From sequence record PQ571290: a DNA stretch of 42,599 nt; one strand, given 5' to 3'. This DNA is from Escherichia phage EF2-1. The notes beneath the pieces are model-generated. The model saw nothing but the letters and a program-made list of their open reading frames with translations, did not search any database and was not told the DNA's origin. Shown one piece after another: positions 4,379 to 4,506 of this stretch. Each line of letters opens with the position of its first letter. Position 1 is the stretch's first letter. The translations under genes and the position numbers were made by a program.

Positions 4379-4456
4379 ACCAAGTAATAAGAATAAAGGC
4401 ACAGCCATACCTGAAGAATCACAACGGCAACGTAACTTTTCTCTTGCACACCCCAA

Positions 4457-4484
4457 CATAATAGGATACTATTCACTTATCGAA
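4457..4484 (+). promoter_or_regulatory. conserved promoter/operator element: CATAAT hexamer + palindrome ATAATAG-N4-CTATTCA, then TTATCGAAACGAGA leader
   Basis: near-identical 50-nt block at 6035-6090; ends 23 nt before the RBS of gene 4507. Confidence 0.5.
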
Positions 4485-4506
4485 ACGAGACAGAGGAGTG
4501 AGGGTT

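Follow-up and report, generated by a model that had tools for sequence, protein, structure and literature searches.

Two repeated blocks in the genome of Escherichia phage EF2-1 as probable members of a host-type promoter family with a putative 14-bp operator

Introduction

The early promoters of lambdoid phages (434 OR and OL, P22 c2/Cro) are sigma-70 promoters overlapped by a short, recurrent palindromic operator. The 434 operators are 14 bp long, and the P22 operators read TTAAG-N4-CTTAA, with the same layout of half-sites and spacer as the palindrome AATAG-N4-CTATT that is the subject of this report. This palindrome lies in two repeated promoter-leader blocks, copy 1 and copy 2, within a 42,599-nucleotide stretch of DNA from Escherichia phage EF2-1 (sequence record PQ571290; hereafter the window), which is the near-complete 42.6-kb genome of a virulent Kagunavirus, a siphophage of the Guernseyvirinae. 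These phages (Jersey-like and K1G-like) are among those most often isolated for the biocontrol of Salmonella and E. coli, and an experimental analysis of their transcription programme was not found in the literature.

Repeated early promoters also occur in the PeSL cassettes of T4-type phages, which consist of a strong sigma-70-like early promoter and a stem-loop (PMC2839356, PMC4122927). Among the closest relatives, the paper on the Kagunavirus fBC-Eco01 reports seven "phage RNA polymerase (RNAP) promoters" listed by PHIRE, with the consensus tgAATAGTa-ccTATTat-T (PMC9825357), whereas the GenBank record of the Salmonella phage Jersey (KF148055) labels three orthologous sites as host-type promoters and does not mention the palindrome. 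The sole Kagunavirus RNA-seq study, the K1B4 transcriptome, gives coarse time classes and no 5'-end data, and it places a gene with a helix-turn-helix (HTH) domain among the four genes peaking early.

Results

The two blocks, at 4443-4490 (copy 1) and 6034-6081 (copy 2) on the plus strand, align without gaps and are identical at 41 of 48 positions, which bears out the near-identity claimed in the original prediction. A degenerate 48-mer built from both blocks matches these two sites alone, with 0 matches in 100 shuffles. Each block contains TTGCACAC (4444-4451 and 6035-6042), a (C/T)ATAAT hexamer (CATAAT at 4457-4462 and TATAAT at 6048-6053), the sequence ATAATAG-N4-CTATTCA (4458-4475 and 6049-6066) and TTATCGAAACGAGA (4477-4490 and 6068-6081), and a GAGG-type Shine-Dalgarno sequence follows ahead of ATG 4507 and ATG 6093. 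The sequence ATAATAG-N4-CTATTCA, which had been described as a palindrome over its whole length, is present, but its perfect symmetry is limited to the 14 bp AATAG-N4-CTATT, namely AATAG-GATA-CTATT at 4460-4473 in copy 1 and AATAG-ACTA-CTATT at 6051-6064 in copy 2.

Copy 1 heads a rightward cluster of small genes, behind a variable intergenic region of ~480 bp, as seen from the open reading frame (ORF) map and the annotation of relatives, and copy 2, 1.6 kb further on, stands as an internal promoter of the same cluster. Over 400 related records share parts of the region 3400-7400; most are Jerseyvirus of Salmonella or Kagunavirus of E. coli, and the recorded hosts of these phages include Escherichia, Salmonella, Klebsiella, Raoultella and Proteus. 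With this 4-kb query, the Escherichia phages BUCT789 and Henuyfy11N are 97% identical across an aligned 85%. The promoter sequences are conserved across two genera, Kagunavirus and Jerseyvirus. The copy-1 block with a perfect palindrome was found in 29 of 34 relatives picked solely via the downstream protein, and this block is conserved to at least 80-95%, with variable intergenic DNA on its left.

In the window, AATAG-N4-CTATT has seven mismatch-free sites (850, 4460, 6051, 14178, 25698, 37507 and 41061) against 0.01 expected, all of them intergenic and all at promoters of the sigma-70 type. When every palindrome with 5-nt half-sites and spacers of 0-8 nt was counted, this one came first in each genome, with 7 sites in the window, 6 in K1G and 4 in Jersey, and the runners-up were terminator stems. 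The seven promoters fall into two classes: four have the palindrome centre at -12.5 (class A), and three have it at -18.5 (class B). Class A corresponds to a 32-nt core, TTGCA(C/G)AC-N6-ATAATAG-NN-TACTATTCA, which occurs at four sites (4444 and 6035 on the plus strand, 14207 and 25727 on the minus strand; 0 expected). Class B consists of minus-strand promoters TTGAC(A/G/T)-N17-TATAGT, close to consensus, with the palindrome inside the spacer. The proposal of one unit copied twice is thus not supported, since the two blocks are two of four class A promoters and belong to at least seven promoters that bear the palindrome. Over the 33-nt promoter core, copy 1 matches the minus-strand site 25696-25728 at 31 of 33 positions and copy 2 at 27 of 33, and the leader ATCGAAACGAGA (14/15 identical) is the sole part special to the pair.

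Both blocks are very probably promoters for the host RNA polymerase with sigma-70, of canonical geometry. Both conform to the sigma-70 rule (TTGnnn, 16-18 bp, TAnnnT) as TTGCAC-17-TACTAT, with the -35 hexamer at 4444-4449 and the -10 hexamer at 4467-4472 in copy 1, and at 6035-6040 and 6058-6063 in copy 2, which has an A/T-rich, UP-like stretch, AATAAAATTTA, directly upstream. The -10 hexamer TACTAT is made up of the last two N4 bases and the CTAT of the right half-site. The predicted start sites, ~7 nt after the -10, are A4479 and A6070, which would give leaders of 28 nt (4479-4506, with the Shine-Dalgarno sequence GAGGAG at 4493-4498) and 23 nt (6070-6092). The four genes directly downstream of class A promoters in the right orientation, at ATG 4507, ATG 6093, and ATG 25670 and ATG 14151 on the minus strand, each have a ribosome-binding site and begin 21-28 nt past the predicted start. 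The earlier view that the blocks are promoter-plus-leader units immediately 5' of small genes is supported, and the geometry itself would not require a phage factor for recognition.

Comparisons among orthologues support the assignment of TACTAT as the -10 of class A. The N4 always ends in TA among class A orthologues (GATA, GTTA, GCTA, ACTA, TCTA) and in AA or AG among those of class B. Most copy-2 orthologues, including that of K1G, read GATAGAATAG, so that TATAAT is lost, with GATAGA in its place (TTGCAC(A/G)CTnnGATAGAATAGGCTACTATTCATTTACACAAACGAGAGGAG), whereas TTGCAC, the palindrome and TACTAT are retained. The Jersey orthologue shows the consensus TTGACA at the equivalent position, 18 nt from TACTAT, and its GenBank label is that of a host-type promoter. 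For class B, TTGACA slides by 1 bp relative to the unit of palindrome plus TATAGT (spacing 17 in 49 sites and 18 in 18), as would be expected from the flexibility that sigma-70 tolerates. Overall, of 248 distinct palindrome sites taken from ~100 related loci, 227 conform to TTG...-16/17/18-TAnnnT, each in one or the other of two fixed registers. The sequence CTTGCAC...CCCCA might also be read as sigma-32-like, but this was discarded, as its spacing is 1-2 nt and not the 13-15 nt of the sigma-32 consensus.

The palindrome would be the operator of a dimeric DNA-binding protein, most likely a repressor, and we hold this part, like the statement that combines it with the promoter assignment, with moderate confidence, whereas the promoter part alone is held with high confidence. 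The palindrome is short, recurs at the seven promoters and overlaps their core elements, and the suggestion of an operator made in the original prediction is credible. The palindrome is the only element common to classes A and B, and part or all of it lies where sigma-70 does not read, namely the left half (-19 to -15) in class A and the whole (-25 to -12) in class B. The half-sites are invariant while the N4 and the flanks vary, and this holds in loci chosen without regard to the palindrome, namely in 29 of 29 promoter-bearing copy-1 orthologues and in 38 of 39 loci picked solely via the 71-aa HTH_3 protein described below, the latter for the site 850-863. Because the register relative to the -35 and -10 differs between the classes, the palindrome appears to be an independent operator, and in Jersey a site at 16957 shows yet another register. 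Since it lies upstream of every predicted start, it would act at the DNA level, and since it overlaps the -10 in class A or fills the spacer in class B, operator function is its most likely role. At least seven promoters thus probably carry one binding site for a single regulator.

A natural control is provided by the Cornellvirus SP-031 (Salmonella phage FSL SP-031, locus L005), which retains promoters at orthologous positions (TTGCAC-18-TATAGT, for instance, beside its HTH_3 gene in the divergent region) and has 0 AATAG-N4-CTATT sites. Its promoters (e.g. at 14066, 14681 and 17748) have spacers of the TAATA...TAATAT type; a search for an alternative repeated palindrome in SP-031 returned only these loose spacers and no repeat family.

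The leaders were also examined as RNA. They are purine-rich, and under the predicted starts ATCGAAACGAGA is the initial transcribed sequence. A search of Rfam with 4300-6300 at a permissive E-value and with the whole window at gathering thresholds gave only a chance-level match to ctRNA (E 0.34), and 55-nt regions from the predicted starts fold no better than shuffles (z of +1.9 and -0.45). The leader varies at five or more positions among copy-1 orthologues without compensation, and most copy-2 orthologues carry another leader, CATTTACACAAACGAGAGGAG; the copy-2 version of the window is shared solely with BUCT789 and three IMG/VR relatives and resembles the copy-1 and Jersey leaders. The common part, AACGAGAGGAG, is a purine-rich translation-initiation region that recurs before the minus-strand gene 813 and, in a looser form, behind the promoter at 8715. 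As a genome-wide motif, ATCGAAACGAGA was rejected, with 3 matches at up to 2 mismatches against 3.5 expected. The palindrome would not be transcribed from its own promoter, because it lies upstream of the predicted start site. These results argue against the proposal that the conserved leader is a regulatory RNA motif.

Three other readings of the conserved block can be weighed against these data. The original prediction paired TTGCAC with (C/T)ATAAT, only 7 nt away, and suggested that recognition of this non-standard promoter may need a phage factor or operator occupancy. CATAAT and TATAAT are indeed nearer the -10 consensus than TACTAT, and TTGCACAC is strictly conserved at class A sites, but (C/T)ATAAT has no -35 partner at 16-18 nt (0-1/6) and no TG extension, the DNA where the -35 of CATAAT would fall is variable and carries an indel among relatives, the hexamer is GATAGA in most copy-2 orthologues, and TTGCAC-17-TACTAT accounts for all conserved positions. 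The reading is therefore very unlikely, and the apparently atypical -35 comes from pairing the wrong hexamer. Still less probable is a structured regulatory RNA in the leader, or a palindrome that serves, within the spacer, as the loading site of a Q/AlpA-type antiterminator. The two leader copies agree at 14/15 positions, the binding element of Pseudomonas aeruginosa AlpA lies between the -35 and -10, and BUCT789 labels a nearby gene "AlpA family"; conversely, the empty Rfam search, the folds, the uncompensated variable positions and the different leader of most copy-2 orthologues speak against an RNA, and the "AlpA" ORF (5001-5234) has no Pfam match. In addition, a single AlpA molecule recognises an asymmetric 6-bp element, whereas the site here is palindromic, the AlpA contact residues R128-H142 imply a protein far longer than the 56-aa HTH_17 candidate considered below, and AlpA needs a -10-like pause element downstream of the start, whereas no TAnnnT is found here in +1 to +12. 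The antiterminator analogy was rejected on the grounds of protein size, site symmetry and the missing pause element. Least credible are promoters for a phage-encoded RNA polymerase. This is the published label for fBC-Eco01, whose PP6 and PP7, once reverse-complemented, correspond to copy 1 and to the common copy-2 allele, respectively (PMC9825357), but PHIRE detects repeated motifs only, "RNA polymerase" is absent from the gene table of that paper, and the sites stand in two orientations relative to the genes they serve. No RNAP gene is annotated in BUCT789, Jersey or K1G, and none was found by Pfam in the largest ORFs of the window: the 746-aa protein has an AAA domain only (replicative helicase/primase in BUCT789), the 723-aa protein matches DNA polymerase A, and the other three are annotated tail proteins in BUCT789.

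Two further explanations bear on the palindrome itself. It may bind no protein and be shared by descent of one cassette spread by recombination, with both halves -10-like (TATAAT / TACTAT) and serving either direction. Consistent with this, three of the four class A sites are flanked by genes on both sides, in divergent regions, the reverse strand of class A reads (4/6 -35-like hexamer)-17-TAT(A/G)TT at 3 of 4 sites, and the cassettes border hypervariable slots, with recombination junctions within the leader that resemble PeSL-type shuffling. However, copy 2 keeps AATAG though it has no gene on its other side, and in copy-2 orthologues the reverse hexamer degrades (TATTCT) while AATAG stays; the class B halves, in a spacer that sigma-70 does not read, are invariant while the N4 and flanks change; and two genera with different flanking promoter sequence have identical half-sites. 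We consider this explanation unlikely. A slightly less likely one is a genuine operator read by a conserved transcription factor of the Enterobacteriaceae, which the phage would exploit. In its favour, Kagunavirus and Jerseyvirus share an unchanging palindrome despite variable recognition helices in both phage HTH candidates, and the recorded hosts span Escherichia, Salmonella, Klebsiella, Raoultella and Proteus. Conversely, Cornellvirus infects the same Salmonella hosts without any such site, and we know of no E. coli regulator consensus that fits AATAG-N4-CTATT: OxyR (ATAG-N7-CTAT), TrpR (CTAG-N4-CTAG), ArgR and Fur differ in spacing or bases, and NrdR does not match either.

The window encodes two small proteins that could bind the putative operator. 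The first (938..1153, plus strand) is a 71-aa protein with a Pfam HTH_3 domain (Cro/CI-type). Among solved structures 434 Cro is its closest relative (E 5e-7, over the full length), and its full length also matches the 434 and P22 C2 repressors. Its gene adjoins a divergent control region with one perfect (850-863) and one imperfect palindrome (894-907). The second (3700..3870, minus strand) is a 56-aa HTH_17 protein (excisionase/MerR-like winged helix); its 442 phage records, with identities of 60% or more, are confined to Kagunavirus and Jerseyvirus. A search for distant HTH_17 homologues returned 13 clusters, all at least 79% identical and of the same clade, and in IMG/VR Guernseyvirinae only. 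The HTH_17 protein co-occurs with the palindrome, and SP-031 lacks both. In a rough split, the HTH_17 protein is the foremost candidate, though a tentative one, the HTH_3 protein and a host factor are each possible to about the same, lesser degree, and another phage protein is unlikely.

Several observations weigh against the interpretation given above. TTGCAC matches the -35 consensus at only 3 of 6 positions and TACTAT the -10 consensus at 4 of 6; the class A total is 7/12, against 10-11/12 for class B, and class A promoters fall under the threshold of a generic promoter scan, so that they may need the help of another factor. No transcript 5' ends or binding data for any Guernseyvirinae phage were found in the literature. 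It is from the position of the palindrome only that repression rather than activation is inferred. The orthologous copies are so alike overall that constraint acting on the palindrome is not distinguishable from constraint on the block in its entirety, and the operator argument therefore draws on the comparison of paralogues. As for the binder, neither HTH candidate tracks the palindrome cleanly. The HTH_3 recognition helix reads SQGAINQLA throughout the Kagunavirus loci but SQSLITHLA in Jerseyvirus, with an identical palindrome in both, and the Jersey helix resembles that of SP-031, which has no palindrome. The HTH_17 helix varies within Kagunavirus (TRRTLNNW, TRQTINNW, and SPMTLNRW in K1G) with the palindrome unchanged, and proteins of the HTH_17 fold usually bind direct repeats.

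The promoter-leader cassettes form the conserved left borders of hypervariable gene slots. For copy 1, the first gene (4507..4698, plus strand) encodes a 63-aa protein of unknown function (phrog_12538) from a diverging family with the N-terminus MFK(K/R)GQL, and among loci L006-L119 at least nine sequence clusters follow this copy, most of them sharing only that N-terminus. For copy 2, the first gene (6093..6230, plus strand) encodes a 45-aa protein (phrog_35344), and at least 15 unrelated first genes follow its orthologues. Five relatives carry an additional gene (MNKA...), whose insertion junction falls within the leader, at GAGACA. These observations suggest recombination between promoter copies.

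The remaining members of the promoter family lie elsewhere in the window. For class A, the minus-strand promoter at 25696..25728 reads CTTGCACACCCCAATATAATAGGGTACTATTCAC, with its -10 at 25704-25699; it serves a minus-strand cluster from ATG 25670 (gene 25344-25670, 108 aa) and faces, across the divergent region that holds it, the tail-chaperone gene at 25835. The other minus-strand member (14176..14208; TTGCAG-N17-TACTAT, -10 at 14184-14179) precedes a 94-aa gene on the same strand (13867-14151); this gene is absent from BUCT789, matches no family and stops at the terminator 13869-13835. The stretch 13835-14208 on the minus strand forms a complete promoter-gene-terminator unit between the portal and minor-capsid genes, which lie on the opposite strand.

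The three class B promoters top the generic promoter scan in their regions, with 10-11 of 12 consensus matches. That at 873-845 (minus strand; TTGACA-N17-TATAGT, 11/12, palindrome 850-863 in the spacer) drives the minus-strand gene 813-556, and its leader, CCGAACGAGAGGAGAG, resembles those of copies 1 and 2. Those at 37502..37530 (minus strand; TTGACG-N17-TATAGT, palindrome 37507-37520) and 41056..41084 (minus strand; TTGACT-N17-TATAGT, palindrome 41061-41074) lie in the replication module and the recombination/replication module, respectively, and the Jersey orthologue of the former is annotated as a host promoter. Ahead of the HTH_3 gene, the degenerate plus-strand site AATATGGTACCATT (894..907) corresponds to AATATGGTACTATT in 35 of 39 relatives, and TGgTACTAT there reads as an extended -10. 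The extra change of the window in this site also weakens the presumed -10 (TACCAT).

Two imperfect palindromes possibly represent a third register, class C (perhaps -33.5). At 8710..8743 on the plus strand, ACTAG-TTGA-CTATT lies over the -35 of the promoter TTGACT-N17-TATATT (8715-8743), which has the related leader CATCGACAACGAGAACGGAG, and at 15841-15870 AATAG-TTGA-CTTTT (15841-15854) lies over the -35 of TTGACT-17-TAAGCT. The evidence for class C is weaker because the -35 hexamer already fixes two positions of the right half-site. Each of these palindromes has one mismatch, which Jersey has in the other half-site (AATAGTTGACTAGT).

Further occurrences of the half-sites were noted. In 12 relatives (e.g. 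L030:2547), an additional perfect palindrome, AATAGGTTACTATT, without a recognisable -35, lies just 5' of a conserved stem-loop, TACGCTGCTACACAGCAGCGTA; at 5727-5778 the window retains this stem-loop (5755-5778) next to a decayed palindrome (CAATAGTTTGGGATTTT). The same half-sites with a 6-nt spacer, AATAG-GAGCGA-CTATT, occur at 5828-5843, directly 5' of ATG 5857.

Upstream of copy 1, and adjoining it, is a plus-strand 21-nt block, GAATCACAACGGCAACGTAAC (4416-4436, about -63 to -43 from the predicted start A4479), which has a single occurrence in the genome and is at least 95% conserved in 31 relatives, unlike the remainder of the intergenic region 3955-4440, which is variable. The minus-strand region 4340-4452, with a hairpin at 4351-4371, is occupied by three unrelated sequence modules among relatives, each with one GC-rich hairpin (GGGCAGGC..GCCTGCCC, GGGTGGGC..GCCCACCC and GGTGCC..GGCACC). 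A divergent small RNA running from 4452 to 4340 on the minus strand, from the reverse side of copy 1, was considered and rejected (fold z of -2.2, no covariation in the alignment). BUCT789 annotates an 85-aa minus-strand ORF in this region, without a family match.

Discussion

The arrangement of the two blocks suggests how they would work. Host sigma-70 polymerase would start at A4479 and A6070 and produce a purine-rich leader of 23-28 nt ending in a GAGGAG-type ribosome-binding site, so that promoter and leader would form a compact expression cassette before a hypervariable small-gene slot. The promoter family as a whole would drive non-structural clusters, namely the small early genes, the replication/recombination genes and the two minus-strand inserts in the structural region. 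A dimeric protein on the palindrome would occlude RNA polymerase and could switch all of these promoters, namely those of the small genes, of replication/recombination and of the morons, off together, in a Cro-like manner.

A wider view can be offered tentatively, and we regard it as somewhat doubtful as a whole. One 14-bp operator, in two or three registers, may be present in essentially all non-structural promoters of Kagunavirus and Jerseyvirus, so that one small protein (the phage HTH_17 or HTH_3 protein or a host factor) might flip the early/middle programme of a strictly virulent siphophage, with the cassettes doubling as recombination boundaries for the swapping of unrelated early genes.

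As judged from sequence, the feature would be a normal phage promoter family with a conserved putative operator and would come as no surprise to specialists in phage transcription. Reading the sites as sigma-70 promoters with a shared operator corrects the published label of phage RNAP promoters, yields a promoter map with predicted starts for at least seven transcription units, and points to two small candidate proteins and one 14-bp site. In addition, the cassettes would mark the exchange points of hypervariable early genes, which are likely to be genes for host takeover or anti-defence.

The promoters of fBC-Eco01 (PP1-PP7) and of Jersey show the same motif at orthologous positions; both records list the sites only and propose no operator, and that of fBC-Eco01 assigns them to a phage RNA polymerase. 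The resemblance to the loading sites of Q and AlpA is confined to a putative factor-binding element between the -35 and -10 of a sigma-70 promoter, whereas the element here is palindromic, is not followed by a -10-like pause element and has no protein of Q or AlpA size to accompany it. Like PeSL cassettes, the blocks are repeated, conserved early-promoter cassettes beside hypervariable small-gene slots, with an insertion junction in the leader. Unlike them, they are far fewer and have no terminator stem-loop fused at either copy, the nearest hairpin being 72 nt upstream of copy 1 and none adjoining copy 2, so that membership among PeSL-type mobile cassettes was rejected.

The comparison with lambdoid control regions goes further. 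The sites differ from lambdoid operators in that at least seven are scattered over a virulent 42.6-kb genome instead of being gathered in two operator clusters, in that the window has no CI-type repressor, integrase or lysogeny module, and in that the putative operator stands in different registers (-12.5, -18.5 and perhaps -33.5). Cro-like binding is only putative here, and the pattern of recognition helices across the genera argues against the HTH_3 protein as the binder. Conversely, the site has the 14-bp length, the conserved outer half-sites and the variable centre of the 434 and P22 operators, and, as in the lambdoid systems, a 434 Cro homologue (71 aa) is encoded beside a divergent control region.

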